This document shows, one piece after another, positions 17,892 through 54,582 of a DNA stretch of 64,000 nucleotides. The notes beneath the pieces were generated by a model. The model ran no database searches. It was given only the letters and a program-made list of their open reading frames with translations, and was not told where the DNA came from. The DNA comes from a virus. Position 1 is the first letter of the stretch. Each line of letters starts with the position of its first letter. Location: the IMG/VR virus record IMGVR_UViG_3300027708_000051, positions 1 through 64,000 of that record; one strand, written 5' to 3'. The position numbers and the translations under genes were made by a program.

Positions 17892-17923
17892 AAATCACGG
17901 CTTAGGTCGTGATTTTTTATTTT
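17892..17923 (+). terminator. Intrinsic terminator with cUUAGg loop
   Basis: AAATCACGGC-TTAG-GTCGTGATTT plus U tract, after nrdA. Confidence 0.8.
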
Positions 17924-17966
17924 GGGGGTATTTATAAAAAATAATGACGACACTATATTTATAGTT

Positions 17967-34486: not shown

Positions 34487-37400
34487 ATGAGTTGTTTTTT
34501 ATCATATAATGCTAGTATAACGGGAGATTGTACTAATCTTAACTTAGGGTCATTTACCATTACAATTAATGGTAATGCTCCCGACTATACAATTCAATGG
34601 TTATCACCGACCACAGGTACAACTGCGTTAGGTGCTGGTGTTACTGCGTATACTCAAACTAATTTATCTGCCGGTACATACTCATTTAATATTATTGATA
34701 GTTGTATTTCGGGTAATACAGTACAACCTGTTAATATTTACATATCTAGTGGAACTTGTGTTTCAATTACAAATGTTACTGATACTGTATGTGATGCGAG
34801 TAACGGTTCTTTAATTGTGGAAACTAGTAATTTTTATGGTAACGCGGTATTTTCATTATACAGTGAAACAACAGGTTTAATTTCAACATTTTATCCAACA
34901 AACAATTCATATTTATTTAATAATTTATCGTCTGGCATTTATTACGTGATTGCCAATGATGGAGGTGGATGTACAGGTAAATCTGAAAGCGTAATTGTTA
35001 AAAATTCATCAAATTTAAATTTTGGTTTATATGTTGTTGATGATGCGGGATGTGCATCTAATTCAGGTAAAATATTTATAACAGGTTTAACAGGCACACC
35101 ACCATATACTTATTTATGGTCTAATGGGGGAACTAATGATAGTATTACAGGTTTAACAGAAGGTGTTTATACAGTAACGGTAACTGACAGTAGTTATTGT
35201 TCTATTAGTAATACTGCGGTAATAAATAAAATATCACCAGTTGGGTTAGGTGCGATTTATTTAACACAACCAACTTGTTTTACGGCGGATGGTGAGGTGG
35301 AAATTATTATAACAGGTGGTACCGCACCATTTTATTATTTAGGGTCTAATGGAGTTACAAATGTTACATTTGATAGAACAGTTGTTTTTACGGGATTAGG
35401 TCCGGGAGGGTTTACCATTCAAGTTACTGACGCGGGATTATGTACTTTTACTGCAAGAACAAAGTTATTAACACCAAAAGGTATGTCTGCAGTATCAGTT
35501 GACATTACTAATTCAACTTGTAATGATTTTTCAGGTGTTGTTGGTCCTATTGTTGTGTTTGGTGGAACAGCACCTTATACGTTTACTTTGACAGATTCGT
35601 CAGGAAAACAAAATTCAAACACCGTTTATCAACCAAATTATATATTTAATAATTTATCTTCAGGTGATTATACTTTAGATATTACTGATAATGGTGGTTG
35701 TACATTCACAAGTGCTTATACGATTAATAACGTAGTTACCTTTGAATTATTTGCATCAACTATTGGTACAACTTGTGATGGTGATAACGGTTCAGTTACT
35801 TTAGAAATAACAAGTGGTGGGACGCCTCCTTATAGATACGAAATAAATGGTCAATCTATAAATAATGTATCATTAACTTCATATACATTTAACAATTTAG
35901 TTAGTGGTAATTATGTTGGAAGTGTAATAGATTCATCATTATGTAAACAAAGTCAAACATTTACCATTAACCAATCAAATACTATTGATTTTCATTTATT
36001 AGGTGAAAACTCAGTAAATGACGATGGAATTATTACTGCTTATATAACAAACGGAACACCTCCATTCACATTATATTTTAATGGTGATACTTCGGGAACT
36101 ACAGTTATGACAATACCTGATTTACCTGCGGGTAATTATTCGGTTAGAATTGTTGATAGTTCAGGATGTTCAAAAACAAAAAAAATACCAATTAAGGGTG
36201 AAAACCAATTTAACTCTGTAGGGTATTATAATGTTTGTCAGGGGTCATTTGACTCTCCAATAGCTGTCTTATCAAACATTAGACAATTTTTTTATGAAGG
36301 TTATAATGAATTGATAACACAAGGGTTTATATCATCAGGTTATACTAATTGTATGTTAACCGGAGCAACATTTTCGGCACAAACGACTGTTGGTGATTGT
36401 GTTAATTCAGTTATTTTTCATACGGGGACTTCTATAACAGATTATCCAACTGATGAATTATGGTTTTCGGCTATTACAACCTTAATTGAGTCTTGTCCTC
36501 AAATTGGGGATGGTAACATTGATATTGATTCGTTAAATAATACAATCACAGTCACGACAAATTGTGAACCTGAATCTTTACATAATTCAAATGTTTTAGT
36601 GGAACTAAGGATTGATTATGAAATTGAGTGTGTTTGTCCACCTGTAACCCCAAGTCCAACACCAACACCAACTTATACACCAACACAAACTCATACACCA
36701 ACACCAACTTATACACCAACACTAACAATGACACCTGGTGCTTCACCACCAGTGACTCCAACACACACCCCTACACCAAGTATTACACGAACTCATACAC
36801 CAACACCAACAATAACACAAACTAAAACTCCGACACTTACACCAAGTATAACGCCTACTCATACGCCAACACCGTCACCTAAAGACAAATATTATGTATA
36901 CTTAATGTGTGGAGAACACCCAAGTAACACAACGGTAGTAATTCAAACAGTTCCTGCGATACTAAATAATGTGATTAATGATGTTATACTTGATTTAACC
37001 CATAAGATTTGTTGGCAATTAGTTGATATTGGTACTAATCTACAACAATTACAATCTCAATGGAATGGTACTACTTACAATAATTATTTTACAGGTGGAG
37101 TAACACTATTCCCATATATTCCAACTAAAACACCTTGTGATGATTGTAAAAAAGCACTTGAAGCTTTACCGGTCCCAATTAAAAGTGATTGCCCAACTAG
37201 TTTAAGAAATTGGAGTGATTGTAAAGGTGCTGATGTTACTGGTGAAATATATATTATAACACCAAATGGTGTTGCAAGTCTTGTTTATTCATTTGGACCT
37301 AATTTTGATGTTAACTTATATCTTGGTAGTTTACCAACAAACAGTGGTGATATTATTAAAATAATATTAACACCACCATTAGACGGGGGGTCAATTGTTA

Positions 37401-37990
37401 CATTAAATGTTACAGGTAATGCACCGTATTCGCAAACAAGTAATGAATCAATAGTATATGAGTTTAAAACCGTATGTAACCAAAAAGGTGATGGTAGTAG
37501 TATAGAAATTTTCTCAACTTGTAAAGGTTCTATACCTTCAATAACTTTGTACAGTACTTCGTATAGTGAGGCAGGAATTCTTCCATCAACTTATTATTCA
37601 ACATCTTGTTTACAAAGTAATACTTCACCAGCAATGACTTGGATTTTAAATAATTTTAATGGATTATCTGTTTTTAGTTTTGAAATACTTTGTGAAGATT
37701 TAAATGCGTCGGGTAGTAGTCCAAATGGTTATTTTGTTCATTGGTGGGTTAAAGATATAGACCCAACTCAATTAGATATTACTGCTGCGGGTAGTTGGGT
37801 TAGTGCGACAGTTCTACCAACCGATTATGGTTCAGGTGATGACGCTAACGGATGGAATGGACCTTGTCCTTTAACTGCACCTTCTAATCACAACTATAGA
37901 ATACAAATAACTGCTAATTTAGTTATTGGTGGTCCTTTAGTTAGTAATTACTCAACATTTGTTGGACCTTGTATATCACCATTCTGTTAA
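34487..37990 (+). CDS. SprB-repeat fibre/adhesin with PT linker and C-terminal PEBP (YbhB/YbcL-like) domain
   Basis: About 7 repeats of the GGT(A/P)PY..W/Y...L..G.Y...V.D..GC type; TPTPT linker at about 36640-36880; C-terminal SPAMTW...EDLNA...FVHWWV...GWNGPCP...HNYRIQI. Confidence 0.7.
36640..36880 (+). repeat. Pro/Thr-rich (TPTPT) coding repeat
   Basis: Tandem ACACCA-type codons encoding [21 protein letters not shown]... Confidence 0.9.
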
Positions 37991-38030
37991 TAAATAAAAA
38001 ACCCCTCCGAAAAGAGGGGTTATTTATTTT
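37991..38030. terminator. Bidirectional terminator between convergent operons
   Basis: A tract, AACCCCTC-CGAAAA-GAGGGGTT, T tract; lies between stops at 37990 (+) and 38030 (-). Confidence 0.85.
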
Positions 38031-38629
38031 TACCAAATTTGTTCTTGTCTCATATGACCTAAGACACAACAATAAGCATCTGTTTGGTCGAAGTTTTCTT
38101 TTTTAAGAGTATTGTTTCTTGTGTATTGCCAAGTGATTTGAGGTTCTTTTTTTGCTATTAAATCCCAAATGATTAGTTTCTTGTCTATGTCTTTTGGAAG
38201 ACCACCAAATAAGACAAATTTACCTTTGTCGTTTTCTTTAACTAATTCAGGGAATGCGAACTTACGAGAGTTGTATGTTGATATGAAGTCAGGAACTATC
38301 CCTAAAACGTCGTAAATTTCTTTTGTGACCAAAGTATTAAACCTTAATAAAGTTTGTACTGTATAGACGTTGTTTGAGTTTAATAAGGGTTCCTCAATGA
38401 TTACTTTAGTAATTCCCATATCTTTATATTCTAAAAGCTTACTTCTAAAGATTTCTCCTTTAAGAAGTAATTCTTTTATTTTATTTTCTTCCTTTGGTTT
38501 TGGAGTTGGGGAAATGTGAGTTAATTCTAATAATTCTTTACTTTGTATGTCAAATAATGCCCAACCAATAGTTTTGGTTGAAACATCAAGCCCTAAAACT
38601 TTAGGGCTTTCTTTTAATGTTTTCTTCAT
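38030..38629 (-). CDS. RuvC-like Holliday junction resolvase
   Basis: VLGLDVSTKTIGWA, VIIEEP, DQTDAY catalytic pattern. Confidence 0.8.
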   Translation of the reverse strand: MKKTLKESPKVLGLDVSTKTIGWALFDIQSKELLELTHISPTPKPKEENKIKELLLKGEIFRSKLLEYKDMGITKVIIEEPLLNSNNVYTVQTLLRFNTLVTKEIYDVLGIVPDFISTYNSRKFAFPELVKENDKGKFVLFGGLPKDIDKKLIIWDLIAKKEPQITWQYTRNNTLKKENFDQTDAYCCVLGHMRQEQIW

Positions 38630-38632
38630 ATG

Positions 38633-41050
38633 TTAAAAATCAAATTTTACTAAAAACTGTTGAACACCCTGTCTTTGAACAGGTGATTGTAGCTTTGATA
38701 CAATCATAAGATTCATTTCGTTATCGTAAAGACCAATTTCTGAAATATATGGTGATAATCCTTGAGACCAACTTGGATTTGATGAATGTTGGAATTCTGC
38801 TTGACCAAGATTTATTTTATATCTCATTTCATAAATGGTTGCTTGAATGTCGGTTTCAATTGAACCATAGAAGTAATATTCATCACCAAAATTAAGGGTT
38901 TGACCTGATTGATTAACTGTTGGTAGTGAAATAAAGTTGTTTAAATGATATGTATTTGAACTTGCAGCGTCATATAATGCTTTTGTAATTACAAAAGTAT
39001 TTGATGTTAGACCAATTTCAGTTATGTAACCATTTAATGTTGATGCACTTAGTTGGTTAGTAAAATCAATTAATCTCCATTCATCAGATGATGGTCTTCC
39101 ACCATTTTCAACAATTTGACAAATAATTTGGAATGTATTTGCAACATATCCATTAACAAGGGTATTATTAAGTATTTGATTTAAACAATTAAAATCTCCT
39201 CCAAATTTAACTACCACATCTTGTTGACCTGGTGTTCCACAATCAACATTTGGACCTACTATTGTTGAGTAATAATTACAATGTAATGAATCGGTTGCAC
39301 CTGATGATGTATTTGTTAATAAATAACTAACATACATAATTTGATTAGTTCCTGTTAAAACACCTGAACCTGAAGTATTGGTTGTTAAATTACAACTATT
39401 CGGTGTTATTAATGATGTTGTTGCTGCAGGTAAAGTCCAGTTACGATTTGATTTATAAGATAATGCGGCAATTAATTCCTCATCATCAATTACTATAATT
39501 TTTTGGTCCGGAAAAACTTTACCAACTCTACTTGGTTTTCCGTTACTACTATTAGGGTGAGAATCCCATAAAAGATAATAACGAATACCTGGGTCATTCA
39601 TATCACTATTTTTAGTTGATTTAATATAGTGAGGTTGAAATACGTCGATAAACACCATATCATCAGGTGGAACAACATAAAATGTTTCACCTTTACAACA
39701 ATTAGGATTTTTATGCCAAGTTAACCAAGGCAAATGTAATTTAAAGTTTCTTGCATCTCCGGTTACATCTACAGGGTTTGTTCCGTTAATAGGTTGTTCT
39801 AAGGCAAATTTTTCACCGTAAAAGAAATCGATAGTATTGTTTGTATAATGAATAATTGCAATTGCTTTTTGTTCTTCAGGAGTTACTACAATTTTATTAC
39901 TAAATGAATCGTAATAATAAACTGAGTCTTCAATATTCATATTCATATCAACAAATGTTTGACCACTACTTGTCATATAACCTAAATACTCTTTAGTTCC
40001 AAGATAAGATTTGGACCCAAAATATGTGTAATCTTGATATGGTGAAACTAATCCTGCCGGATTTTCTGACCAAGGAATATTCATATTCCAAACTTTAACG
40101 TCAAATTGGTCTGTGTTACATATAGATTCAAAATTAATTACGTCTGTATTCCAATGTTCTGTTGGTGTTATACTGTCATATAAATCAGTCATATTTGGTG
40201 GATAAACTAAAGTTCTAACATAAGTACATCCTGAGGCAATATATGAATAATCAGGAGTTTCTCTATCTAATGTGATAACAAATCCACAAATATCGACAAT
40301 TTTATATGTTAAAATATTATAACAACTATTAACATCGACAAATGTATTAACAACGGGAGTTGGAGTACAACCGGTTGGTGTTGTGACACAACAAGTTGAT
40401 GATGGGGTTGGAGTTGGTAATGGAGGTAAACACGCATCGTATGATGGTGTTACTGTTGGTGTTGGTGTCGGTGTAGGAGATACTGGAGTGTTAGTTCCAC
40501 AATAAATTGTGTTACCATCAAAATAAATTGTTATAATATCACCTTTAGATGGTAACCTAACAATATTGGTGTTACAACCTGAATAAAATACTTCTATAGT
40601 AGTTCCACCTGTAAAAGTTGAAATATCTACTACATAATTAGAATATATAACATATTGACTATCTGTGTAAGCACTCCAATTAGATACCGATAATGATGTG
40701 TCACCACTAAAAAAACCTCTCATTGTTGCTCTGTTATAAATTGGAGACACAATTGGATTTGAAAATGGGATACCATATGTGCTGGTATTATTTTGGTCTA
40801 CATATATAGGGTATTTAACATTTTGTTTATTCATTTGTCCCGGAGCGGAATTCTGTGAATTAAAGTTAGGTTCTAATATATTGTTATTAGATAAATTATA
40901 AGATGTTCCGCTTAAGGTGTTGTATGAAATTTCACTATCCCCTACTTGGAAATATGAAATATTAAAATTACCTTGAGATAGTTTTAATCTACCTGTATCG
41001 GTTAATCTTGTATTAATTAATGCTGATGTATTTTTAACTATATATGCCAT
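38633..41050 (-). CDS. Tail-fibre attachment / baseplate protein (P2 gpH N-terminal-like motifs) with PT linker
   Basis: N-terminal LTDTGRLKL..G.FNISYFQVGDSE and C-terminal ISEIGLYDNEMNLMIVSKL resemble the two halves of the tail-collar fibre anchor domain. Confidence 0.55.
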   Translation of the reverse strand: MAYIVKNTSALINTRLTDTGRLKLSQGNFNISYFQVGDSEISYNTLSGTSYNLSNNNILEPNFNSQNSAPGQMNKQNVKYPIYVDQNNTSTYGIPFSNPIVSPIYNRATMRGFFSGDTSLSVSNWSAYTDSQYVIYSNYVVDISTFTGGTTIEVFYSGCNTNIVRLPSKGDIITIYFDGNTIYCGTNTPVSPTPTPTPTVTPSYDACLPPLPTPTPSSTCCVTTPTGCTPTPVVNTFVDVNSCYNILTYKIVDICGFVITLDRETPDYSYIASGCTYVRTLVYPPNMTDLYDSITPTEHWNTDVINFESICNTDQFDVKVWNMNIPWSENPAGLVSPYQDYTYFGSKSYLGTKEYLGYMTSSGQTFVDMNMNIEDSVYYYDSFSNKIVVTPEEQKAIAIIHYTNNTIDFFYGEKFALEQPINGTNPVDVTGDARNFKLHLPWLTWHKNPNCCKGETFYVVPPDDMVFIDVFQPHYIKSTKNSDMNDPGIRYYLLWDSHPNSSNGKPSRVGKVFPDQKIIVIDDEELIAALSYKSNRNWTLPAATTSLITPNSCNLTTNTSGSGVLTGTNQIMYVSYLLTNTSSGATDSLHCNYYSTIVGPNVDCGTPGQQDVVVKFGGDFNCLNQILNNTLVNGYVANTFQIICQIVENGGRPSSDEWRLIDFTNQLSASTLNGYITEIGLTSNTFVITKALYDAASSNTYHLNNFISLPTVNQSGQTLNFGDEYYFYGSIETDIQATIYEMRYKINLGQAEFQHSSNPSWSQGLSPYISEIGLYDNEMNLMIVSKLQSPVQRQGVQQFLVKFDF

Positions 41051-41077
41051 ATCGTATAAATATTCTGTGTTTTATTA

Positions 41078-43234
41078 TTAGTTAATTTTTATTGAACAAC
41101 AATCACATCCACTAATAACAGGATTACTAATTGAATAACTATCATTACTATATCCAACAACACACTCACCTAATGTTGTTTTATCAACTCTTGATGTTGT
41201 GCTAATAGTTATTGTGTCACTATTAGTAAGTGTTAATGAATTCCAAACCTCATCAACATTTGACTGATAAACATATTCTTTTTGACAATTTGTAATTGTG
41301 TTGACAGATTCGTTAGTGTAGTTTGATGTATTACTTAATGGTATCGTAGTGCTATTTTTAGATAGTACTGTTGATGTTGTTAATATTGATGTTCCACTAT
41401 TTGGTGATGAATAAAAACTATTGTTATGTATTATATCAAATGTGATTGTTGTTCCATCAGGTAATGGTGGATTAATAATAACTGTTGTTTCATAAGAATT
41501 GACTAATGATGTATTATTATTAACCGGAGTTGTGTTAGTTGTATAAAGTGATAAACTATATGTTGTTAATTGAGTTGGTTTATCTAAAGTAACTGAACTT
41601 GTATATGTTTCACCCAAAGAATCAATAACTGATAAATCATATATTCCACTACAAAGATTTGTAAATATAGGTGATGATGAATAATTTACACCATTATCAA
41701 TAGAATAATTAAATGGAGGGTTATCCAACTGAATGTTAAATATAATACTTCCGTCACATAAACAAGTTGGTTGATTAACACTTACTGGTGGTAATTGTTT
41801 TCTTGTTGGACCACAACTACCTTCATTAACAATAATTGATGAAATTGATATAGGACTAAATTCATTACCACTTGATAACCAATTAGTTGGGTATGTTGTT
41901 GTCGTGGTTAATTGTGATGTTGAAAATATTGTGTTACCGTAAATTTGTGTTGATAATAACCACTGATTACCAACTTTATTAATTGTCGATTGAGGGTTAT
42001 CATCACCTATCCAAATTGGATTATTATTTGAATCTAATGAATCGTAAGTGAAATGTATAACAATTGGTAAACGTCGTCTATTTGGTTGTATTGTTAAACA
42101 AAAATCAGAATATGTGGTAATTGTTGGAACTATTAATACAACAGTATTATCCGGACAAAGAGGATTATATATGTATATAACACCAGTATCGTTTGGTACT
42201 TCAATAATAACACCCGTTTGTAATGTACTTAGTGATAAATTTTCAGCCAAATCCCCTGATGGCACCATTATTGGGATATATCCTGGAGATGGTGGTGCGG
42301 CATTATAGTAAATTGTGTATGGTTCGGGTGATGTCCCGTCAGTTATTTGTATTGTATAATAATATTTAGTATTATCAAAAGGGTATATTGGAGCTGATGG
42401 GTCACACCAATTACCACATATTGTTTCTGATAAAACTGTAATATTAGTTCCACTAAATGTACCTTGAATACAAGGTGTGTCATTGACTTCAATACCGGCA
42501 CCATATGGTAAGCATTCACCTAATTCAGAACCACAAGGTATCCAACAGATAAGCCCTGGTGTTTGGACAGTAAAGATATAACTTTTACAATAACATTCAA
42601 CAGGGGGAGGTGTATAATTTGCGATACTACCACTAAACACACAATCTCTTTCTGTAAGAATTGTACAAACAGTTGTTGCGGTAAAATCACCCCAATAATC
42701 CACTGTGGTTGCGGTATAAGAACCATTAGAAAGTCCGTTAAGTGCCGGTGATACAATATTGTAATTCAACCAAGTAGTTTTATATGGTGGAGTTCCTCCG
42801 CTAATTGAAAGAGATACTTCACCATCATAAGCATCGACTGAAGATGGATTAGATATCTCACATTCAACCACCATTGGTAAAATAGTTATAATTCCACAAT
42901 CGTTTTTATATCCGACAATTATTGGTGTAACAACTGGTGTTGGGTTAACACAGTTATAATTAGGATTATCATTCAAACATTTTAAACAATCAAATGAGAT
43001 AGTGTTAGTAATGATTGGTGTAACATTATATATTGTAATATTTGGTAATGGTTGACTTCCTGATGTTCCACTATAGGAAACACACCCTGAAAACGAACCC
43101 ACAGATAATGGATAACCAGGGTTATTTGTTGGGTCAAACCAAGATGACCAATCATCCGTTGCCCCTGAAGTAATACCAAATGGAGGGAAACCACCACAAC
43201 ACTGTTTAAAATAATATATAATACCTGATTCCAT
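41078..43234 (-). CDS. Cys-rich SprB-repeat-containing virion protein
   Basis: ISGGTPPYKTTW...LNGLSNGSYTATTVD and PPFNYSIDNG...FTNLCSGIYDLSVID; start 43234 (MESG) preferred because TATTTATA lies 18 nt upstream. Confidence 0.6.
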   Translation of the reverse strand: MESGIIYYFKQCCGGFPPFGITSGATDDWSSWFDPTNNPGYPLSVGSFSGCVSYSGTSGSQPLPNITIYNVTPIITNTISFDCLKCLNDNPNYNCVNPTPVVTPIIVGYKNDCGIITILPMVVECEISNPSSVDAYDGEVSLSISGGTPPYKTTWLNYNIVSPALNGLSNGSYTATTVDYWGDFTATTVCTILTERDCVFSGSIANYTPPPVECYCKSYIFTVQTPGLICWIPCGSELGECLPYGAGIEVNDTPCIQGTFSGTNITVLSETICGNWCDPSAPIYPFDNTKYYYTIQITDGTSPEPYTIYYNAAPPSPGYIPIMVPSGDLAENLSLSTLQTGVIIEVPNDTGVIYIYNPLCPDNTVVLIVPTITTYSDFCLTIQPNRRRLPIVIHFTYDSLDSNNNPIWIGDDNPQSTINKVGNQWLLSTQIYGNTIFSTSQLTTTTTYPTNWLSSGNEFSPISISSIIVNEGSCGPTRKQLPPVSVNQPTCLCDGSIIFNIQLDNPPFNYSIDNGVNYSSSPIFTNLCSGIYDLSVIDSLGETYTSSVTLDKPTQLTTYSLSLYTTNTTPVNNNTSLVNSYETTVIINPPLPDGTTITFDIIHNNSFYSSPNSGTSILTTSTVLSKNSTTIPLSNTSNYTNESVNTITNCQKEYVYQSNVDEVWNSLTLTNSDTITISTTSRVDKTTLGECVVGYSNDSYSISNPVISGCDCCSIKIN

Positions 43235-43337
43235 TTTTATTATTTGTTTTACTATAAATAATCTAAAGTTTGATTTTATTAAAAATATAATTGACATTTG
43301 TTGTTAATAAATGGTGAGTTGGGAGATATTTATAAGT

Positions 43338-43538
43338 ATGAAACTGATAAATACAATATCTAATGTTGTCACAGAGGCAAAAGATGCTTATGAAAGAGCG
43401 TGTGACAGAGGTGTTCCTGAAAAAGAACTTGATAGATTAGAAAAAAACTATTATGAATCCTTAAAACTTCTAAGGATATATGAAAATTTAGGTAAACGTA
43501 ATTGTGATGAAGATTTAAAAACTAATAATAATCATTAA
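43338..43538 (+). CDS. Small hypothetical protein inserted antisense to the fibre operon
   Basis: 66 aa from ATG 43338, own GATATTTATA motif 3 nt upstream; occupies the gap between two minus-strand genes. Confidence 0.6.
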   Translation: MKLINTISNVVTEAKDAYERACDRGVPEKELDRLEKNYYESLKLLRIYENLGKRNCDEDLKTNNNH

Positions 43539-43556
43539 TCCATCACCTCACTTTTT

Positions 43557-45485
43557 TTATCCAGCACCAAGAGAACCTAATCTTCTTGGTGGTGTATCAA
43601 AAATCCAATTTGTATTTGAACCATTATTACCTGAACCACTTATTGCGTAAAAAGTATTTAATTGATATGCTGTAGAAGCATTAACAACTACATTTGGACA
43701 AATTACTAATCCTGGATTTAATTTATATAATCCAAATGCTACAGAGGTTGTTGAGTATAATAAAGTTTGGTTTGTTGAATTTCCAACTTGGAAGGTATCG
43801 AAAATATATGTTATTTGACTTGCTTGAAAAAAAATAACGTGAGCGGATAATGAAGTATTTATTGTAAAATCCTTAAAATTTTGAAAATAATTAGAACTGT
43901 TAATAATTGTTTGTGGATTTACAGAACCTGACCTATCTATATTTAAATTGTAATATTGGCCTGTACCCCCATTAAAACTTACTGATGTACCAGTTTTATC
44001 AGTTATCCTTATTGTGGATGTGCTTGGGTCTATATATAGAACTCCTTGAGTTATTCCAGCAACACTCCAAACAGTCCCTGTACCGTTTAAATTTATAATG
44101 GTATTACTACCTAACCCTAAATATCTAGTAGTTGTTGTTGAGGATGATTGTAATGAGAAAATATTACTTGTTGTATTTCCACTAAAATATAACTCACCAC
44201 TATTAAATTGTATATTACCTGATAATGTTGTATTTCCTAGTGTAACAGATGAATTAGTTATAGTTAATGTAGTTGATGATGTAATACTATAAAAATAACC
44301 CGTTGGTAAATAACCAACAACACTATTATTAAAAGTGATATTTGTTGTTAAATTTACAGAACCATAAAAATATACCAGCCCCCAATTAATAACATTTATT
44401 GCCGCAGGGTTTGTTGAACTTGTATTAGAATTATAATTTCCAAAAACTTCTAAAGAGTTCCCAAACCCTCCAGAATCATTACATTGTAACCAACCTGTAA
44501 GTTGTTTATTAAATGTTCTAAAAATGTGATTTGGATTACCAATATTATAACCATCCCCAAAAAATAAATTATTACTTGTTGACACGCTCATAGAGTCACA
44601 TAATATAACATCCCCATAAACTGTTAGTTGTGCGGTTGATGCCCAAGTAATGGTTGAACCTTCTATAAAAGTAAGACTAGCGATAACACTTGTTCCGATG
44701 TTCAAAGTTCCACCTGTTTTTGAAACAGTAATATAACGATAATCAGCTACGGTTGATGTTGACGTAATAGTTGTTAGAGCTGTTCCTGAACCTTCTATAT
44801 ATACATATGGTACAGTAATTGTACCTGTTAGAGATATTGTTCTAGCAACTGATGCGGTACTTGTTGAATGGAGTTCAGTAGTAATATAGAATGATAAATT
44901 AGTTTGTGTGGTGAGTGTTAATAATGTTCCAGTCCCTGTTAAATAAACATAATCAAAATAAAAATATCTAACATTCGTGTTGGATGAGGAAATAAGTCCC
45001 GCATATAAATAACTTCCACTAATATTACCAGCCGTTAATGTAAGTGTCCCTGTTAATATAATAGGGGAAATATTTTGATACCAATTTGCTCCAACTGTGT
45101 TAAATGTCATACTCCCTTTATGGGAAAGACCATTACACTCTATATATGAAGTGACTCCCGATACTGATGTAAAAGTTATTAAACCTGAATAAGTGTGAGT
45201 TCCACCTAAATAAAGAGCATTAGAACCACTACTACTAGTTACAATATTTAAAGCCCCTGTGCCTGCTAATGTTCCTGTAAAGAGTGAAAGGTCTAAAGTA
45301 TTACAAGTGGAGGTGGCAGCAATAGTTAACGTACCACTTCCTGATGCAGCATTTACAATAGCATTATCTGCAGTTGTTGGTACTCCCGCAACTCCACCTG
45401 TACCCCCTGAACCATTGTACCAATTTCCTGCTACTGACCAAGCGGCACTACCGTTACCCGCAACATACCAATACTTAGCCGCCAT
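43557..45485 (-). CDS. Beta-helix-like fibre/spike protein
   Basis: YWYVAG...W...GNW...SGGTGG.AGVPTTADNAI...SGSGTLTI followed by GTLT-type passenger-like beta repeats. Confidence 0.55.
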   Translation of the reverse strand: MAAKYWYVAGNGSAAWSVAGNWYNGSGGTGGVAGVPTTADNAIVNAASGSGTLTIAATSTCNTLDLSLFTGTLAGTGALNIVTSSSGSNALYLGGTHTYSGLITFTSVSGVTSYIECNGLSHKGSMTFNTVGANWYQNISPIILTGTLTLTAGNISGSYLYAGLISSSNTNVRYFYFDYVYLTGTGTLLTLTTQTNLSFYITTELHSTSTASVARTISLTGTITVPYVYIEGSGTALTTITSTSTVADYRYITVSKTGGTLNIGTSVIASLTFIEGSTITWASTAQLTVYGDVILCDSMSVSTSNNLFFGDGYNIGNPNHIFRTFNKQLTGWLQCNDSGGFGNSLEVFGNYNSNTSSTNPAAINVINWGLVYFYGSVNLTTNITFNNSVVGYLPTGYFYSITSSTTLTITNSSVTLGNTTLSGNIQFNSGELYFSGNTTSNIFSLQSSSTTTTRYLGLGSNTIINLNGTGTVWSVAGITQGVLYIDPSTSTIRITDKTGTSVSFNGGTGQYYNLNIDRSGSVNPQTIINSSNYFQNFKDFTINTSLSAHVIFFQASQITYIFDTFQVGNSTNQTLLYSTTSVAFGLYKLNPGLVICPNVVVNASTAYQLNTFYAISGSGNNGSNTNWIFDTPPRRLGSLGAG

Positions 45486-45489
45486 TTAA

Positions 45490-45738
45490 TTATAATGTGT
45501 TTAAATTCAATATGTTCAATACATAATTTTGTATTACAGTATCGTCTGTTCCCCACTCTAATACTATGTCGTGAGGAATAGTCACTGAACCACTGAATGA
45601 ATCTGAATCACCATTTATTTTCCAAAATACCTCAACGGTATCAGGAAATAATGGAAAAGCATTAATGGTAATATCAATAGTTTTCGCCTCCCAATTTAAT
45701 GGGTATGTAATTACGTTTGTAGGTTGTAAATTTGTCAT
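45490..45738 (-). CDS. Small fibre-associated protein (possible chaperone)
   Basis: 82 aa between fibre genes; EWGTDDTVIQNYVL motif; function inferred from position. Confidence 0.4.
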   Translation of the reverse strand: MTNLQPTNVITYPLNWEAKTIDITINAFPLFPDTVEVFWKINGDSDSFSGSVTIPHDIVLEWGTDDTVIQNYVLNILNLNTL

Positions 45739-45742
45739 AATG

Positions 45743-46093
45743 TTATTTATAAAATATGTTAATTATTAAATCGTTTGTTCCAACAGCATTCGCATCCGAA
45801 TCGGCAAGTCCGGTAACTGTTGTTATCGCAATTCCTGTTGAAAATGTTATCCCATCCGGTAATGAAACGTTTGCGGCAGATAAAGGTGGTATTACTAAAG
45901 AATATACTACTCCTGAACCTGCTGTAGGTGTTGTCGCAATATTATGAAAAGCAACTTTTCTTGCAGAACCGTTTGAATTGTAAATGTACCATCCATTAAC
46001 CGTTCCCCCACTTGCTTTAATAACAGAAGGATTAGTACTTGCTGCAGATGCTAAGTGATAATAAGATGCCGGAGATATAGGTGTATATGCCAT
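45743..46093 (-). CDS. Small beta-rich virion protein
   Basis: Start MAYTP at 46093, 2 nt after the upstream stop; VIKASGG..GWYIYN...GITFSTGI. Confidence 0.5.
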   Translation of the reverse strand: MAYTPISPASYYHLASAASTNPSVIKASGGTVNGWYIYNSNGSARKVAFHNIATTPTAGSGVVYSLVIPPLSAANVSLPDGITFSTGIAITTVTGLADSDANAVGTNDLIINIFYK

Positions 46094-46095
46094 AA

Positions 46096-49000
46096 TTATA
46101 TAATGTTCCAATTAGCACCATCGCTAATTAATGTTAATGATAAATATTGTGTTTTTATTAATGCCGTTAAACTTCCATCTATTGTTTGAGATGATGTTGT
46201 GTTTATTGTAATTGTACCGGTTCCAACATTTTTAATAACGTATGAATTGGTGTTACTGATTGATGTTGGGAGTGTTATTGTGATTGTGTTTGATGCGAAA
46301 TATATATAATCAGTATTTGAATTGTTTCCAGCATTTGTGTTAATAGACACTGAATTTATTGATTTTACAGATGATGCAGGTAAGTTAAGATACGTTGTTG
46401 CGGAAATTGTATTTGCAGTTAAACCATTTGTAAAGTTGGTTGCTCCTGTTACAGTTCCTCCGGTAAAACTTCCACCTGATGCAGGTAAGTTAAGATATGT
46501 TGTTGCTGATATTGTATTTGCCGTTAATCCACCTGTAAAGTTGGTTGCTCCTGACACTGTTCCTCCGGTAAAGGTAGAACTTGTTGTTATACCGGTTACA
46601 CTAAATGTTCCTCCGGTATTATTTGTAAATATAATTGTACTACCACTATAAGTACCACCTGTAACAAAAACGTCTGTAAGACCGGTTACATTAAATGTTC
46701 CACCCGTTACATTTGTGAAGGTTATTGTTGAAGTATTTTTATTAAAAGTACCACCGGTTACATAAACATCCGTTCCGCCCGTATATAACCCAGTAACATT
46801 AAATGTTCCTCCGGTGTTATTTGTAAAAGTCAAAGAACCTGATGAGTATGTACCTCCCGTTACTCTAATATCTGTTGGTAAATTCTGATATGTTGTTGCC
46901 GATATTGTATTGGCAGTTAAACCACCTGTAAAGTTGGTTGCACCTGATACAGTTCCACCGGTAAATGATGAACTTGACGTTATCCCTGTTACGTTAAATG
47001 TACCACCTGTGTTATTAGTAAATATGATTGTACTACCACTATAAGTACCACCTGTAACAAATATATCTTTAGATGTATTAAAGGTATGAGTATTACCACT
47101 TGAAACAATTGAAAATGTTGTTCCAGTATTTGTTCCTACTGCTAATATTTGTGCAGCTCCTGTAAGACTATTAAGAGCAGTGATACCTGTACCTGCCATT
47201 ATACCACTCTGTTGTGTTATAGTTAGTATAGTAGATTGTACAGCAGGATGTGCAAATGGACTTGTCTGAGCTGTTTCAGATATTATAGACATATTAATAT
47301 CAGCGCTTGCCCAATACAATTCTATTATATCTCCTGCTATTAATTCTATAAGATAATTCCATGCAGCCATCATATATGCAGGACTATTACCTTGTAATGA
47401 TATAACACCTGAACTTGCGGTTATATCAGTTCCATTTTTTCTTAACCAAAAATTTACATAATCAACACCTGCATCACTCTTATCCATTTGAGAAGAAAAC
47501 TGTAAATTGTAAATTCCTGTATTAGCAACAACAATCTGAGAAGTCATTGTTCCTGTATATGTAGCAGAAGTTCTAAGTTGAGAAACTGAAACTACATAAG
47601 TTCCTATTCCTCCTGTACCACTTGTAAATGCAGATATAAAAGTTCCTGCTGTTATACTACCACCTGTTAATACCATTCCTATCTTTAATGTTCCTGATGT
47701 AACACCTGTAACATTTAATATAGTTCCTGCACCTGCTCCACCATTACTTATAGTTCCTGTAAAAATAGCAGTTTGTGTTTGTAATGAAAATCCATTAGAT
47801 AAATCTGTAGTATCAAATTTTATTGCTCTTGGAGTATTTGCAGTTGGATTATCTTGTGTTGTACTATCTGATATTGCTAAGTAATATCCTGTAGGTGTAG
47901 CAGCAGTATTACTTCCCCATTTAAGACCTGTTGATGTTGTACTATCTGCTAATAAGACTTGTGTATCTAACCCTACTGGTAGTCTTGTATTAGTTGAATT
48001 AAATGTAAATAAATCACCTTTAGTTGTAAGAGGTGATGTTGTAAATCCTGTTACAGTAAATGTTCCTCCTGAATTATTTGTAAATATTGCATTACCAGCG
48101 GTGTATGTTCCCCCCGTAACAAAAATATCTTTTGGTAAGTTATAATATGTGGTTGCCGATATTGTGGTTGCGGTTAAACCATTATTATTTAATGTTACTC
48201 CCGGAGTTGTGATTGTTGTGGCAGATATTGTATTTGCTGATAATCCGTTTGTAAAGTTTGTTGCCCCCGATACAGTTCCTCCTGTAAAAGAAGTACCCGT
48301 ACTTGTACTAAACCCTGTAACATTAAATGTTCCTCCGGTATTGTTTGTAAATATTGCTGTTCCCGATGAATAGGTACCACCCGTAACAAAAATATCTTTT
48401 GGTAAATTATAATATGTGGTTGCCGATATTGTATTTGCCGTTAATCCATTTGTGAAATTGGTTGGACCTGTTACCGTTCCACCACTAAATGTTGATGGAG
48501 GTAAATTATAATATGTGGTTGCCGATATTGTATTGGCACTTAAACCATTTGTGAATATTGTTGGTCCTGTAACCGTCCCACCACTAAATGTGATACCACC
48601 ACCTGTTTGAAAGATTCTCCAATTTGCATTTGCACTTGTATAACCACCAACACCCTCAATAGTTGAGGCAGTCCAAGATTGTATAAATGATTGACCTGCA
48701 GATGAACGACTATTAACAACGGTTGTATAATCAGAATAAGTTACGGCAGAAAATCCTGTAAGACCGGTTATATTATTCCATAATGTGTCATAATTTGGTA
48801 TTACATATTGATAAACTTTATCTGTCTCGTGAACATATGCCATCATACCTAATCTTCTTCTACCTGAAGATATGTTATCCGAATTTAATGTTAAATAATC
48901 AGGAGATAAAAATGTACCATTACCTTTCATATATCGTATCGGTATGGTATTGGCAGATAATTGAATTAGTGATGGGTAAGTTGATGCCGTTAATGTTAAA

Positions 49001-49143
49001 GTTAAATCAGATAGGTTATATACTTCCATATAACCACCAACATTAAGTACTGAAAAGTTGGTCCCAAAAACTGATGTTCTTGAAACGGATTGTGGCGTTG
49101 ATACTTGAACGCTGGATATTGGATTTTTGTATGGTACTGACAT
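46096..49143 (-). CDS. Repeat-rich tail fibre with internal C1q-like module
   Basis: Repeats [28 protein letters not shown] and [24 protein letters not shown]; [10 protein letters not shown] motif; C1q-like [14 protein letters not shown]...WLRKNG...AGDIIELYW. Confidence 0.7.
46360..48600 (-). repeat. Dispersed coding direct repeats in the tail fibre
   Basis: Exact 35-bp ATTGTACTACCACTATAAGTACCACCTGTAACAAA at 46634 and 47027; AATATGTGGTTGCCGATATTGT at about 48144, 48411 and 48510. Confidence 0.85.
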
Positions 49144-49154
49144 AATAATAAATA

Positions 49155-50879
49155 CTATGTTTTTGTATTTCCTTTAAAGAATAATGACGATGATAATGAT
49201 GGTGGTGGAACTGAACTTGGGATTAAACAAGTTGGGTCAATCCAAAGAACTCTATATATGTTTGATGGGATTGCTGCACCACTTGAAACAACAACATTAG
49301 TTGATGCCAATACGGCATCAGGGATTGCGTTATAAACAATATCAGTAGAACAAGGTATATTTGAACCAATATCAATAGTCATATTTGTCATTGAACCACC
49401 TACCGCATTTAAAGGTATCCAAAGAGTGTAGAAATATTGTATATTTGGATTAATTTGTGTTGTTAATAATTCGATTGTATTGAATGAATATTGATGTTGA
49501 ATACAACCATAACTATCTGTACCAGTTCCAACTAATTGTCTAATGTGTCCTTTTAATGTTGATACATTAGTTATAAAGTTTCCATTACTTCCGGTAAATC
49601 CTGAGTAATGAATGTAAATATTTAAATCGTTAGAATAAGAACTAACAGATGGAACACCACCATTACCCCATCCTAAGAAACTAGTAGACCCACTATTATA
49701 CATATAAGTTCCTAAATTAGTTAATGATGTAGTGTCTTGTGGTTCCGGCACTAAATAAACATATGGGTCAAACACATATGGATATGTTGGGGTTGGAGTA
49801 TGTGTTGGTGTTATACTTGGTGTAGGTGTATGTGATGAGGTTATACTTGGTGTTGGTGTATGTGAAGGTGTTATACTTGGTGTAGGGGTGTGTGTTGGGG
49901 TGATTGTTGGTGTTATTGTAGGTGTAGGTGTAGGTGTTACAGCAATTGCACAACTAACATCTGATGACGCAGCACCAACACCAGGAATTGTTGTTTGAAC
50001 TAATGTAAATGTTGGTATTGTAATATCGTCAAGACGGTATACTTTTCCTGTTGAGTATTCAAAAAGATAAAGTTTATTATTTTTTGATGACAATCCATAT
50101 ACCCCTGTAATTGATGGATTAAGAGTTACATCATATTCAATAGTTCCTGTTGTATAATTATATTGAGTTAAATATATATTACCACCACCCACACTTGAAA
50201 CAAATAATTTATCTGTTGTAGGAAAATAATACAAATCTCCTCCAACTATTCTACCGGTTCCGGGTAATGAAAATTTATTAGTTATTGTTGGTATTGTTGT
50301 TGAGATATCTGCCTCAACTACAATATAGGACGACCCAGCAGTTGCTCCGGTGATTGTTGAAATTAAAGTATTCTCATCTTTAACACATAAACCTAATAAA
50401 GGTTTTGATGGGTATAGAGTTCTATTATATAATGCTAGAAATGGTGTTGAGTTGATATAATATTCGGTAATTTCTTGTGGATTATTAGTATCGGTAATCC
50501 AAAATTTATTACTATTATTTGCTATGTCACCAATTGATGGTAATGATGGGAATGTTAAATGTGTTAAAACATTCGTGTCAATATTATACTTAAATATATC
50601 TGTTGTACCTGTAGTAACATAACTTGAACAATCTATGGTTGTTGGAGGAATATTTAAACAATCAATAATTTTAAATCGTTCACATTTATCTGATGTTATT
50701 ATTTTAATACCCACCGCCGGTGCCATATTAAATGGTGGTGGTAATACAATTTCTATTGTTGGTGGAATTGAAGATATAACTTGAGCAACATAACCACAAT
50801 TACTACCATACACATCACATACGTAAATATCGTATGGGTAAGTTAAACCTGTGATGTTAAGTAATGTTATTGATGTCAT
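49155..50879 (-). CDS. Modular virion protein: N-terminal SprB-like Cys domain, propeller-like region, PT linker, C-terminal domain
   Basis: N-terminus homologous to ORF 53410-53631; blade-like motifs (GDIA..S.KFWITD, GGDLYY...DKLFVS, GLSS.NNKLYLF); TPTPT at about 49790-49940. Confidence 0.55.
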
Positions 50880-50885
50880 AATTTA

Positions 50886-53408
50886 TTATGATATAGTTAT
50901 ATTAACATTTCTAGGTGGTGATTGTAATGTCGAATATGCCGATATGTTAGTGTATTTTGGTGTACTAGTACCTCTTAATTGTAGTATACCACTAGACCAA
51001 GTTGAATTTGAATAACTTGTTAGTAATTTATCAATATTTGTACTATTAAATCCTGAAGAACTACTAATTATAATTGTACTTAAATTTGTAAAAATTCTAG
51101 AACTATTTGAGAATGTTGTAATGGTATTATTACCACGAATTATTAAACGATTAATTGCTAAATGAACTAATGATAAATCTCCGGAAATAGTGTTCTGTCC
51201 TGATATAGTAATGTTTTTAGCGTTAGATGGTAAGTTTTGAATATTTCCTGAAATAGTGTTATGACCATCAATAAATATTTGATAATACGCGTAAGAATTA
51301 CCAAGAGTTCCAATATCACCGGTTACTGTATTGCTACCTTCTAAAGAAAAGAATGCCCCGGATTTTAAGTTTATTGAACTAATATTTCCTGAAATAACGT
51401 TATTACCTACAATTGACACTGTAATTAAGGTTGAATAGTTAAATGTGTTTATATTACCATATAATGTGTTTGAACCTGAAACCTCAATTCGGATTAAATT
51501 TGGGGGTAACGTTGAAATATCTCCAGTTACCGTATTATTACCGTATAATTGTATTTGAGTTGTACTATTAGGTAATCCACCTAAATCACCTGAAATAGTG
51601 TTAAGACCGCCAATGTATATTCTATATAAAGATGGTGTTGACAATAAAGCTATGTTTCCACTAATGATGTTTTGACCTTCAATCACAAGGTCTACAAGAG
51701 ATGATGATGGGATGTTTTGAATATTACCACTTAATGTATTATTACCACCTATAGCAAATGTTGTTAATGTTATTGGTAAATTGGCGACATTTCCTAGTAT
51801 CGTATTAGACATATTTAATGACGAGGATAAGTAATTAATTGTGAATGATTCAATAGTTGATGGTAAATATTGAATATCTCCGGATAAATTACCATAAGTT
51901 ACATAAAGAGTTATTAATGATGACGGTAATAAATTAAGATTTCCTGATAAAAATACTATATTCGCTACGTTAAAAACTGTTAGCCCATCTAATAGTGATA
52001 ATTGAGAAGTTCCAACCTCTAAATATCTAGTACTTGTGTCAGTTATTAATGGTAATGTACCGATGTTTGCTTGAAAAGTAGTAATTGAAGTTAAGTCAGA
52101 TGATTGAATTAATATATTTCCAGTGTATGGTGATGAATATGTGTGAGTGATTGCTATAGTTGTATTTGGAGTATATACCATAGTATTACCATCTCCCCAA
52201 ACAACCCTGAATGGTAAAAGTGGGGATATCACAAGACTAATAGAAACATTATTTAAACTTCTAGCTGTCATAGTAAATGTTTCGTTCATTGCTGCCGGTT
52301 GTGTTATAGTTGGTGTAAGTGTTGGAGTTGGTGTGTGTGTTGTTGTTGGAGTGTGTGTTGGTGTTATACTTGGTGTTACAGTGTGTGTTGGTGTTTGAGT
52401 TAGTGTTGGTGTATAAGTTGGTGTTTGAGTTAATGTTGGTGTATTAGTATGTGTAACACTCGGTGTTGGAGTGTGTGTTGGAGTGTGAGTTTGGGTTATA
52501 CTTGGTGTTGGTGTATGTGTAGGGCTTTGTGTTGGTGTTGGTGTTAAAGCTATTTGACAATAAACACAATCACCAGAATAAGAATAACCATAAGAACCTG
52601 ATAAAATATTAATATCATTTATGTTTCCGTGATTATAATCTATTCCTACATAAAAAATACATTTATTTGATGCGATTCCTGATATAGTTACAGATGCACC
52701 ATACACACTAAATAATTCAAACTGATATCCTGTTGGTTTTCCTGTGACATTATTACAATAGTAAAAATCACCATAATAACAATCTTGGAATTTTAAAGAC
52801 CCTGGGCAAATTATTTGACCGGTAATTGCAGAATAGTTGGCAAACCCATATAATGGACAATTTCTTGTTATTAAATCTGAATAAAATGGTAATATTGCTT
52901 TTTTATTCTTTGTGTTATATTTTGTTGGTGTTACTGTTGGGGTTGGTGTTGGGGTTGGTGTGTAAGTGTATCCGCTAGCGTCAATACCAATAATTGAACA
53001 AAAATTTGTTGAAGATGGTGTTATTGTTGGTGTTGGAGTTACACTTGCACTTGGAGTTGGTGTTGGGGTTGGTATATATTCACAATCAAATAATGCTGTA
53101 AAATCTAACACATCACAATTTTGTGTTGGGGTTGGAGTAGGTGTAGGACACATTCCACTAAAAACGTAAACACTTGATAAGTCAGGACAAGAACTTGTGC
53201 ACGGATATTTTCCCGTTAAATAACAAGTTCCTCCTAATGTATCAGATAAACACCAATAACTTGTTGCACCTGTTGAATAATATATAGTCCAACCACTAGT
53301 TTGACCTGTCCAATAGGATTTACCATTATAGGTTCCTCCTGTTATGTAGTTATCATCGGCACCTACTAATCCGGTGTTATTTATACAATATGTAGAACTA
53401 CAAGGCAT
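50886..53408 (-). CDS. Cys-rich, PT-linker protein with PKD-like domain and C-terminal leucine-rich repeats
   Basis: Several TPTPT tracts; VVWGDG...HTY; more than 10 repeats of about 22-24 aa (L..L.I.G.NTISG.I..LP). Confidence 0.65.
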
Positions 53409-53409
53409 A

Positions 53410-53631
53410 TTAAATTAGGATATTTGAAATTGATGTGCAACCATTATTATCGACAACTTTTAAATTGTAAGACGGATTATTTTCCAAAATCACGGGAACC
53501 TGAAAATTGTAAGGTAATGATGATGACGGAATTGTGTCAATATAAATGCAAGTAACATTTGTTTGGTCACACAAATAAAGATTAAAAGGTGTTGCTCCTG
53601 ATATGTTATTGATATTAATGTTTGTCGGCAT
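53410..53631 (-). CDS. Single-domain SprB-like Cys protein
   Basis: [13 protein letters not shown]...C...[11 protein letters not shown]; paralog of the N-terminus of 49155-50879; TATTTAT motif 19 nt upstream. Confidence 0.6.
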
Positions 53632-53750
53632 TTGATTAAAAGTTATTATCATAAATATAGTGGCATTAAAAAACTAATAAAGTTTTGATAATAATAATTT
53701 ATTTATTAAAAAAAAATGATACTTTTACAAAAAATAAGATATTTATACAT

Positions 53751-53909
53751 ATGGGGCGTAAAAAAATTAAAACAGAAGAAAAAAAAATTAGGATGTCTAT
53801 AACAATAGACCCTAATATTGAAAAAATAATTAGAGATAAACATATTAATTTATCATCGTTGACTAATAAATTATTAACAGAATATTTTGGTGATGAAAAA
53901 AATATGTAG
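53751..53909 (+). CDS. Ribbon-helix-helix (CopG/CcdA-like) DNA-binding protein
   Basis: KIRMSITIDPNIEKIIRDKHINLSSLTNKLLTEYF fits the RHH strand-helix-helix pattern; ATG 53751 lies 3 nt after TATTTATA. Confidence 0.6.
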   Translation: MGRKKIKTEEKKIRMSITIDPNIEKIIRDKHINLSSLTNKLLTEYFGDEKNM

Positions 53910-54582
53910 TAAATGTTTAGTTGAAAAAGATGTTTGTGAATTTCATAAACATAATAGGGAAAAAGATGGTCGATTTCATCAATGTAAAGAATGCCGTAAA
54001 GTTAAAAGTAAAAATGATTATCATAAAAATAAACAAAATGATAAATCAATTATCACCGGAAAAACTTGTCCATCTTGTTTAATTGAAAAAGATATTAATT
54101 TATTTCACAAACAAATTGGGTCTAAAGATGGTTATAGGTCAATGTGTAAAGAATGTCGTAGTGATAAATTTAAAAATGATTATCAAAATTTACCTGAGTT
54201 TTCAAAAACACATAAGAAAAGAACCAAAGAATATGCTTTAAATAATCGTAAAAAAATTAACGAATATTTTAAGTTAAGATATATTAATAAACCTCACGAA
54301 TATGCTTGGAGGGGGATGTTAGGTTCAGTGACTAGACGATTTGGGGGTAAAAAAGAATCAACAACATATGAAATTTTAGGGTATTCTGCGGAACAATTAA
54401 AAGAACATTTAGAAACTTTATTTATTGATGGTATGTCTTGGGAAAATTGGGGGGAATGGCATATAGACCACATAATACCTATTAGTAAATTTGAAAAAAA
54501 CACTGACCCTAAAATAGTTAATTCTTTAACTAATTTACAACCTCTGTGGGCTTCAGATAATATAAAAAAAAGTAATCATTAA
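53893..54582 (+). CDS. HNH endonuclease with two Zn-ribbon repeats (paralog 2)
   Basis: CSKC..CKEC and CPSC..CKEC; GMSWENWGEWHIDHIIP...NLQPLWASDNIKK. Confidence 0.85.
   Translation: MKKICSKCLVEKDVCEFHKHNREKDGRFHQCKECRKVKSKNDYHKNKQNDKSIITGKTCPSCLIEKDINLFHKQIGSKDGYRSMCKECRSDKFKNDYQNLPEFSKTHKKRTKEYALNNRKKINEYFKLRYINKPHEYAWRGMLGSVTRRFGGKKESTTYEILGYSAEQLKEHLETLFIDGMSWENWGEWHIDHIIPISKFEKNTDPKIVNSLTNLQPLWASDNIKKSNH

Follow-up and report, generated by a model that had tools for sequence, protein, structure and literature searches.

The stretch of DNA analysed here, which is called the window throughout, comprises bases 1 to 64,000 of a virus record of 77,960 bases (IMG/VR record IMGVR_UViG_3300027708_000051); CheckV gives a completeness of 27% and the GC content of the window is 31%. 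The subject of this work is a block of eleven open reading frames (ORFs) that lie next to the baseplate genes and, as an original prediction made from the letters alone had it, on both strands, and in several of which conserved N-terminal parts, referred to here as anchors, are joined through Pro/Thr-rich linkers to C-terminal domains, referred to as heads, that differ from one relative to another. About 100 related loci were fetched and the proteins of the window were compared with them by tblastn; single loci are referred to by identifiers such as L003, L004 and L025.

Genes and proteins of the block

The features of the block and of its surroundings are listed in Table 1. The stalk of g34487 matched the Pfam family SprB (PF13573) with an E-value of 1.8e-16 and 59.9 bits, the cut-off being 28, in three stretches. 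When its seven repeat units were aligned by eye and with a profile of our own that was built from these units, each was found to be about 80 aa long with a Cys pair and a GGxxPY motif, and the Cys residues of the repeats are invariant in an alignment of 86 sequences of g34487 homologues. The full-length AlphaFold2 (AF2) model that was made from this alignment has a mean predicted local distance difference test score (pLDDT) of 74 and consists of seven beta units (pLDDT 75-88), an alpha/beta domain at aa 573-716, the linker, which is predicted to be disordered, two modules and a C-terminal domain. When the model was compared with solved structures by Foldseek, fragments of the GhpA stem ranked first (E 1e-22 to 1e-18) and generic Ig/FN3 arrays came next, and single units of the stalk match FN3/Ig at Z scores of 9.5-10. 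Beyond the linker, aa 900-1013 match the PitB pilin domain (Z 9.2) and the C-terminal head is indeed the PEBP domain that had been predicted, because it matches the Pfam family PBP (PF01161) at 2.1e-8 and 35 bits (cut-off 24) and because its fold matches CT736 (3n08_B) at Z 11.1, with a root-mean-square deviation of 3.5 over 131 aa, and YbhB (1fjj_A) at Z 10.5. By eye the PEBP motifs FVHW, GWNGPCP and HNY are kept, with EDLNA in place of the expected DPDxP. It is unusual for a phage protein to have a PEBP fold at its tip, and such a fold suggests a lipid or an anionic ligand.

The stalk of g34487 is a genuine member of the SprB-repeat family. It is not a secreted adhesin like SprB itself, the gliding adhesin of Flavobacterium, because the sorting domains of the type IX secretion system (T9SS), namely, PF18962 (Por_Secre_tail) and PF13585 (CHU_C), had no Pfam match in g34487 or g41078 and because the bacterial proteins are only about 30% identical to the phage stalk, that is 30-32% for the SprB-repeat proteins that carry CHU_C (P0094 and P0119) and 29-34% for the SprB-repeat ORFs in a metagenome-assembled genome (MAG) of Ferruginibacter. 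No signal peptide was apparent by eye at the phage N-termini. Nothing in these comparisons would suggest a recent capture or mimicry of a bacterial stalk. The protein GhpA, which gave the best structural matches, is the T9SS-secreted grappling hook of Aureispira, a predator belonging to the Bacteroidota; it has 52 disulfide-linked Ig-like repeats and has been likened to SprB (10.1101/2024.01.29.577165). SprB and GhpA share with g34487 the repeat family, and the conserved Cys pairs of g34487 are as in the disulfide-linked repeats of GhpA, but there are seven repeats in g34487 as against tens in SprB and GhpA. With their 1167 and 739 aa, g34487 and g41078 fall short of the thousands of residues of T9SS adhesins of this type and show neither their sorting domain in Pfam nor, by eye, their signal peptide, and, unlike these, g34487 is encoded by a phage within a baseplate operon.

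Among the other proteins, long Thr/Pro linkers were found by masking where they had been predicted, in g38633, g49155 and g50886 as well as in g34487, and the DNA that codes for them is a repetitive ACN-CCN sequence. The count of about ten Cys-rich fibre proteins, on the other hand, was too high: six proteins of the block are rich in Cys (1.7-3.9%), but the four proteins of the cassette from g43557 to g46096 have 0-0.8% Cys and no linker, and g38030 is a RuvC-like resolvase. SprB-like repeats had been expected in four proteins. Besides g34487, our own profile found two units in g41078 with independent E-values of 1e-6 and 3e-9; g41078 itself has no match in Pfam, and its orthologue in L004 passes the Pfam cut-off for SprB with 30.2 bits. 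The score of g53410 with our profile is weak (E 4e-4) and its Pfam match to the Ig-like family Kre9_KNH (2.9e-4) is below the cut-off, and the N-terminus of g49155 does not match our profile although it is homologous to g53410 (1e-7). On this evidence SprB repeats are demonstrable in only two proteins.

The long linker of g50886 is accompanied by three short ones at aa 83-166, and the units of its C-terminal solenoid follow the pattern L..L.I.G.N.ISG.I..LP. The description of this head as LRR is borne out in part, in that the tandem units are present and PF12799 (LRR) was found on 6 of the 120 listed homologues, but g50886 itself has no Pfam match even at E-values up to 10. For the labels propeller, beta-helix and PKD there were no Pfam or PDB sequence matches. 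Nothing useful came from NCBIfam searches with all ten proteins, from PDB sequence searches with g38633 and g46096 or from a profile of g43557. The listed start of g41078 gives a hydrophobic leader of 21 aa, and translation may really begin at the second Met, which is codon 22 (MESGIIYY...). Two genes that L003, L004 and L025 keep apart seem to be fused in g41078. The core protein g38633 has no label in Pfam, PHROGs, the PDB or cultured phages. Its family numbers 760 cluster representatives, and its distant relatives gave nothing in PHROGs, nor did two of them in tblastn searches against cultured phages. An AF2 model of g38633 from an alignment of 18 sequences was discarded with a pLDDT of 38.7.

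Table 1. Location of the studied genes, their domains and the surrounding features in the window
Feature	Coordinates	Strand	Remarks
Studied block, eleven ORFs	34487-53652	two convergent strands	
g34487, 1167 aa	34487-37990	+	SprB-type stalk, Pro/Thr linker, two modules, PEBP head
Seven tandem SprB-type Ig-like repeats of g34487, aa 14-572	34526-36202	+	own profile, independent E 5e-20 to 9e-28
Pro/Thr linker of g34487, aa 715-801, 87 aa	36629-36889	+	masking; AF2 pLDDT ~36
Post-linker modules of g34487, aa 802-1025	36890-37561	+	small alpha/beta module and beta-sandwich
PEBP-fold head of g34487, aa 1030-1167	37574-37987	+	Pfam PF01161 and fold match
g53410, 80 aa, 3.8% Cys	53410-53652	-	stand-alone small Ig-like domain; first gene of operon
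g50886, 840 aa	50886-53408	-	Cys mini-modules, short Pro/Thr linkers, long Pro/Thr linker, PKD-looking segment, LRR-like solenoid
Long Pro/Thr linker of g50886, aa 286-373	52290-52553	-	
LRR-like solenoid of g50886	51114-51944	-	12 tandem units of 22-24 aa
g49155, 574 aa	49155-50879	-	80-aa N-domain, middle domain, Pro/Thr linker, C-terminal head
Pro/Thr linker of g49155, aa 310-372	49764-49952	-	
g41078, 739 aa, 3.9% Cys	41078-43297	-	SprB-like anchor, variable middle, conserved C-part with second unit
g38633, 805 aa	38633-41050	-	conserved core protein; short Pro/Thr linker at aa 184-236
Cassette g43557, g45490, g45743, g46096 (1015, 122, 82, 642 aa)	43557-49143	-	
g46096 central domain, aa 358-689, 332 aa	47077-48072	-	
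RuvC-like Holliday-junction resolvase, g38030	38030-38629	-	phrog_159, 6.9e-5
Minus-strand operon	53652 to 38030	-	convergent with baseplate operon; g53410 first, resolvase last
Terminator-like hairpin, bidirectional	38000-38021		between the two convergent operons
gp25	17922-18425	+	first gene of baseplate operon
gp6/Baseplate_J protein	18430-20268	+	baseplate operon
Replication genes (SSB, UvsX-like, exonuclease, DnaB, RNR)		+	ahead of baseplate operon

Anchors, heads and linkers in related loci

Conservation over the full length was found in the related loci for g29222, g30456 and g31364, for the resolvase, which is 74-97% identical across 82 loci, and for g38633, which is present in about 82 loci and takes up insertions at a hot spot, aa 625-633, where there are about 100 additional aa in L016 and 288 in L025. 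The remaining proteins bear out the modular kit of conserved anchors and variable heads that was proposed originally, since anchors are kept in 25-85 related loci while heads change. Thus, aa 1-715 of g34487 are found in about 85 loci whereas its tail, aa 720-1167, is found in only 6-17; aa 1-80 of g49155 are found in about 31 loci and the remainder in 3-4; and aa 1-280 of g50886 are found in about 25 loci and the head in 11. The small protein g53410 occurs in about 30 loci. In g41078 it is the ends that are kept and the middle that varies, and among its relatives some are split into two or three genes and some carry LRR or PEBP heads. In the closest relative, L003, the homologue of g50886 carries a Fib_succ_major domain (4e-14) instead of PKD/LRR, the homologue of g49155 has a different tail of 650 aa, and g41078 is split into three ORFs. 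The domain content is clearly not invariant across relatives, and a conserved N-terminal part together with an exchangeable C-terminal part is what characterizes modular receptor-binding proteins (RBPs).

The same head is also found on different anchors. The LRR-like head is carried by three anchor types, namely, those of g50886, g41078 (52-63% identity) and g34487 (34-35%), and it lies in the middle of the g41078 homologues of L004 and L011, while a copy of PEBP lies inside the g41078 homologue of L025. More than 3900 homologues of the g34487 anchor are present in a large metagenomic protein collection. PF13573 occurs in every one of the best 120, and their tails have PF01161 (PEBP), PF09603 (Fib_succ_major), PF17164 (delta-60 repeat), PF03382 (DUF285), other families or none. 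A Pro/Thr-rich linker opens 78 of the 94 long tails; the modules that follow the linker are common to about 60 of 93 tails, PEBP is present in only about 25 of 93, and the stalk has no head at all in 18 of 118 homologues. We also observed in L008 a protein of 1356 aa (L008:18336-22406) with 16 Pro/Thr linkers between small modules, which is an extreme case of 'beads on a string'. The heads encoded at L004:261-5435 and L003:2604-5492 include a grass-antifreeze-like beta roll (PF21300, 2.6e-11), and the g49155 homologue of one relative has an intein-splicing-like match, sub-threshold at 1.6e-4, at its extreme C-terminus.

Homology breaks at the linkers. High-scoring segment pairs ended or started at linker edges in 73/88, 18/27 and 9/18 cases. 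The first of these counts refers to the anchors of g34487, where the matches stop at aa 710-739 and the linker begins at aa 715, and the second to the anchors of g50886, where they stop at aa 280-289 and the linker begins at aa 286; the heads of g50886 begin at aa 370-379 and the linker stops at aa 373. Similarly, the match of g49155 in L003 stops at aa 312 and the linker begins at aa 310. When the linkers of different genes are compared as DNA, they show 70-85% identity over stretches of 40-140 nt, and identity of this kind would favour crossovers and is unlike the exact-repeat pattern of a site-specific system. As to gene order, two main arrangements were found, the convergent one of the window in about 50 loci and a colinear one in about 27. 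The block g41078-g38633-resolvase is invariant but takes opposite orientations with respect to its flanks in different lineages, and the gene orders separate divergent genomes.

The cassette has a history of its own. It is missing at the equivalent position in all related loci, and it recurs as a unit in the closest 308-kb relative, at a different site (L129), and also in L103-L105. Since it is absent here in the relatives and yet kept together elsewhere, the comparison of loci indicates that it was moved as one block. In L133 the baseplate genes are followed by the N-terminal 179 aa of g46096. The DNA of the central domain of g46096 is 81-92% identical to that of many low-GC viral contigs (L106-L128, 7-102 kb) which are otherwise unrelated, and at least 740 proteins contain the domain, the 120 best matches being 71-93% identical and 564-1768 aa long. 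Judged by these identities it is a very mobile and highly conserved module that is exchanged among many phages; such conservation is unusually high for the tip region of a fibre. The original prediction of a C1q-like head is supported in part. Residues 530-645 of g46096 share 30-44% identity with phage domains which bear the depositors' label C1q-like or cerebellin and some of which come from cultured Limnohabitans and Acinetobacter phages, but Pfam has no C1q match in g46096, and an Atlas search gave a weak C1q lead (score 0.80; C1q in 17% of one cluster) and otherwise unnamed viral clusters. This region, about aa 530-645, is probably a C1q-like jelly roll.

Genomic surroundings, lineage and host

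The baseplate operon consists of gp25 and gp6 followed by large unlabelled proteins, with g31364 (1026 aa) and g34487 as the last ones. Beyond the far end of the minus-strand operon lie an endonuclease VII/HNH-like gene and a primase gene. There are two endonuclease VII/HNH-like genes (phrog_1035) in the window, at 53887-54582 and 58888-59613. The first, which borders the block, is probably a mobile homing endonuclease because it was found in only 5 related loci. An alpha/beta-hydrolase-like ORF at 20300-21211 (DUF900, 7.7e-4, below the cut-off) lies between gp6 and a baseplate-operon protein of 1768 aa, and an ORF of 2258 aa at 1189-7965 has no family match and contains two short Pro/Thr linkers at aa 668-686 and aa 2119-2132. 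The sequence TATTTATA is present at chance level in the window, with 19 occurrences observed on both strands and 18.6 expected from shuffles.

A megablast search with the whole region gave no match. The nearest cultured phages by gp6 are very distant, namely, Flavobacterium phage immuto with 25.5% and a Microcystis phage with 25.1% identity, and the N-terminus of gp6 has weak similarity to the wedge protein of RaK2/K64-1. The related loci sit on contigs of up to 322 kb, and from contigs of this size we conclude that the lineage is one of jumbo myoviruses. Jumbo phages of up to 307 kb from aquatic sources, with predicted hosts in the Bacteroidota, have been described as the 'moraphages' (PMC12619734), and the lineage of the window may be related to them. 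A Ferruginibacter MAG includes, by binning, one contig of 3.2 kb with a g38633 homologue, and the SprB family is characteristic of the Bacteroidota, the phylum to which the host probably belongs.

A candidate receptor-binding module and the alternatives to it

We consider it likely that the block serves as the hypervariable adhesin or receptor-binding module of a jumbo myovirus which is uncultured, has a genome of about 300 kb and a baseplate of the T4 type, and probably infects a member of the Bacteroidota. The cluster beside the baseplate genes is probably one of fibre or adhesin genes. In the mechanism that we propose, the conserved N-terminal part, which is an Ig array of the SprB/GhpA type or a small Cys-rich Ig-like domain, would hold the protein on the virion, the disordered Pro/Thr spacer would come next, and the exchangeable binding domain would come last, this being PEBP, LRR-like or C1q-like in the window and Fib_succ_major and others in the relatives. 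The ACN-CCN coding of the linkers would provide every gene with stretches of partial DNA identity, recombination at or beside the linkers would shift heads between paralogous genes and between phages, and the exchange of a head would alter what the virion binds. It is a more tentative proposal, and on present evidence a doubtful one, that the Pro/Thr linkers are built-in recombination joints by which heads (PEBP, LRR, Fib_succ_major, DUF285, propeller and others) are plugged onto several stalks, including a phage version of the SprB/GhpA 'grappling' filament, so that the virion would carry reconfigurable flexible tentacles and not rigid trimeric fibres.

Several points weigh against this interpretation. 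The genomic position after gp25 and gp6 is the one line of evidence for the presence of these proteins in the virion and for a role in adsorption, and the minus-strand operon also contains the resolvase and is therefore not purely structural. No match was obtained by tblastn against cultured phages for g38633, g31364, g43557, g49155 and the head of g50886. The evidence on the host is weak, consisting of the contig binned into Ferruginibacter and of the distant likeness of gp6, for which the Microcystis phage scores almost equally. The breakpoints at the linkers could partly reflect the halting of BLAST at low-complexity sequence. Finally, Ig arrays that look monomeric and are borne on flexible linkers do not resemble the classical trimeric tail fibre, and accessory adhesins rather than primary RBPs are therefore possible.

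The last point leads to the alternative that survives best, which we regard as possible though rather unlikely. The proteins would be accessory 'sticky' decorations, monomeric tentacles of Ig arrays whose weak and reversible adhesion to cells, particles or polysaccharide raises the number of encounters, while another protein triggers infection, g46096 with its C1q-like tip being a candidate for this trigger. T4 Hoc, a virion-exposed string of Ig-like domains for which weak surface adhesion has been proposed, is the model for such a decoration, and PEBP and LRR heads are typically monomeric binding domains. The FN3/Ig-like array of the g34487 model without a trimerisation motif, the homologues in which the stalk is headless, and the fact that small cultured phages from other phyla share the C1q-like domain, in a region that some depositors label tail collar, would all agree with it. 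However, a place as the last gene of the baseplate operon fits a baseplate fibre, and the strong diversification of the heads is what is expected of host-range determinants. Unlike Hoc, g34487 adjoins baseplate genes and not head genes, has a long linker and a distinct terminal binding domain, and is strongly diversified.

The appendage envisaged in the original prediction, in which shared docking domains would attach several heads to one scaffold in the manner of a cellulosome and in which mimicry of SprB would let the phage ride on gliding Bacteroidota, we hold to be improbable. The window linkers do resemble those of cellulosomes and cellulases in being long, disordered Pro/Thr-rich spacers between folded modules, and their sole PDB sequence match is the linker of the glycosidase AaBglC (8zvk), but unlike these enzymes the window proteins have no cohesin, dockerin, CBM or catalytic module in Pfam, where cohesin and dockerin had no match in any of the 11 proteins. 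No scaffold was identified. The small domain that g53410 shares with the N-terminus of g49155, both being present in about 30 relatives, is consistent with docking, but the remaining anchors are mutually unrelated and a candidate similarity of the g31364 C-terminus to aa 600-716 of g34487 was rejected at an E-value of 0.23. As regards mimicry, the homology of the stalk to T9SS adhesins of Bacteroidota and its structural closeness to GhpA could be taken in favour of it; this is, however, shared domain ancestry, and an identity of about 30% to the bacterial proteins argues for an ancestry that is old.

Less probable still, in our judgement, is that these are not virion proteins at all but act within the host cell, or are released at lysis to act on the host or the environment. 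In favour of this, none of the homologues carries an annotation as virion protein, PHROGs offer only 'unknown function', and the resolvase gene lies in the same operon; against this stand the place of g34487 in the gp25/gp6 operon, the lack of a signal peptide by eye and of a T9SS domain in Pfam, the Ig arrays, linkers and binding heads that are typical of surface-exposed proteins, and the C1q-like domain in regions that depositors annotated as tail collar. A programmed inversion or shufflon, in which site-specific recombination between the linker repeats of opposite genes would swap tips within one population, is highly improbable because there is no site-specific recombinase gene among the ORFs of 34-54 kb and no long exact repeat: the linkers of g34487 on the plus strand do form inverted repeats with those of g49155 and g50886 on the minus strand, but these are only 70-85% complementary, with a best near-exact stretch of 22 nt at 95%, and the inversion of the g41078-g38633-RuvC block separates phages whose proteins are 50-60% identical, which makes it an old event.

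Returning to the receptor-binding or adhesin module, Klebsiella phages provide an example of modular phage RBP logic (PMC8262889). The window locus resembles the dual RBPs of the Klebsiella KP32 type, the multi-depolymerase sets of the jumbo phages RaK2/K64-1 and the CBA120-like phages in that several RBP genes, if they are such, are clustered near baseplate genes. It differs from them in that the heads are small binding domains (PEBP, LRR-like, C1q-like and Fib_succ_major) and not trimeric beta-helix depolymerases, the stalks are Ig arrays of the SprB/GhpA type, the joints are long Pro/Thr linkers, and a branching domain like that of T4 gp10 was not detected in the window by Pfam or PHROGs. 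On this reading the locus is a new version of the familiar modular RBP logic, built from SprB/GhpA-type Ig stalks, long Pro/Thr linkers and small non-enzymatic heads, PEBP among them. Through its likeness to GhpA the stalk connects adhesins of phages with the surface filaments that Bacteroidota secrete by the T9SS, and the locus would be a natural example of linker-delimited 'plug-and-play' RBPs. The anchor family has thousands of members in aquatic metagenomes, none of which has been characterised, and if these proteins are host-range determinants, then the pairing of head and stalk would be a readable host-range code for an abundant lineage of uncultured jumbo phages.

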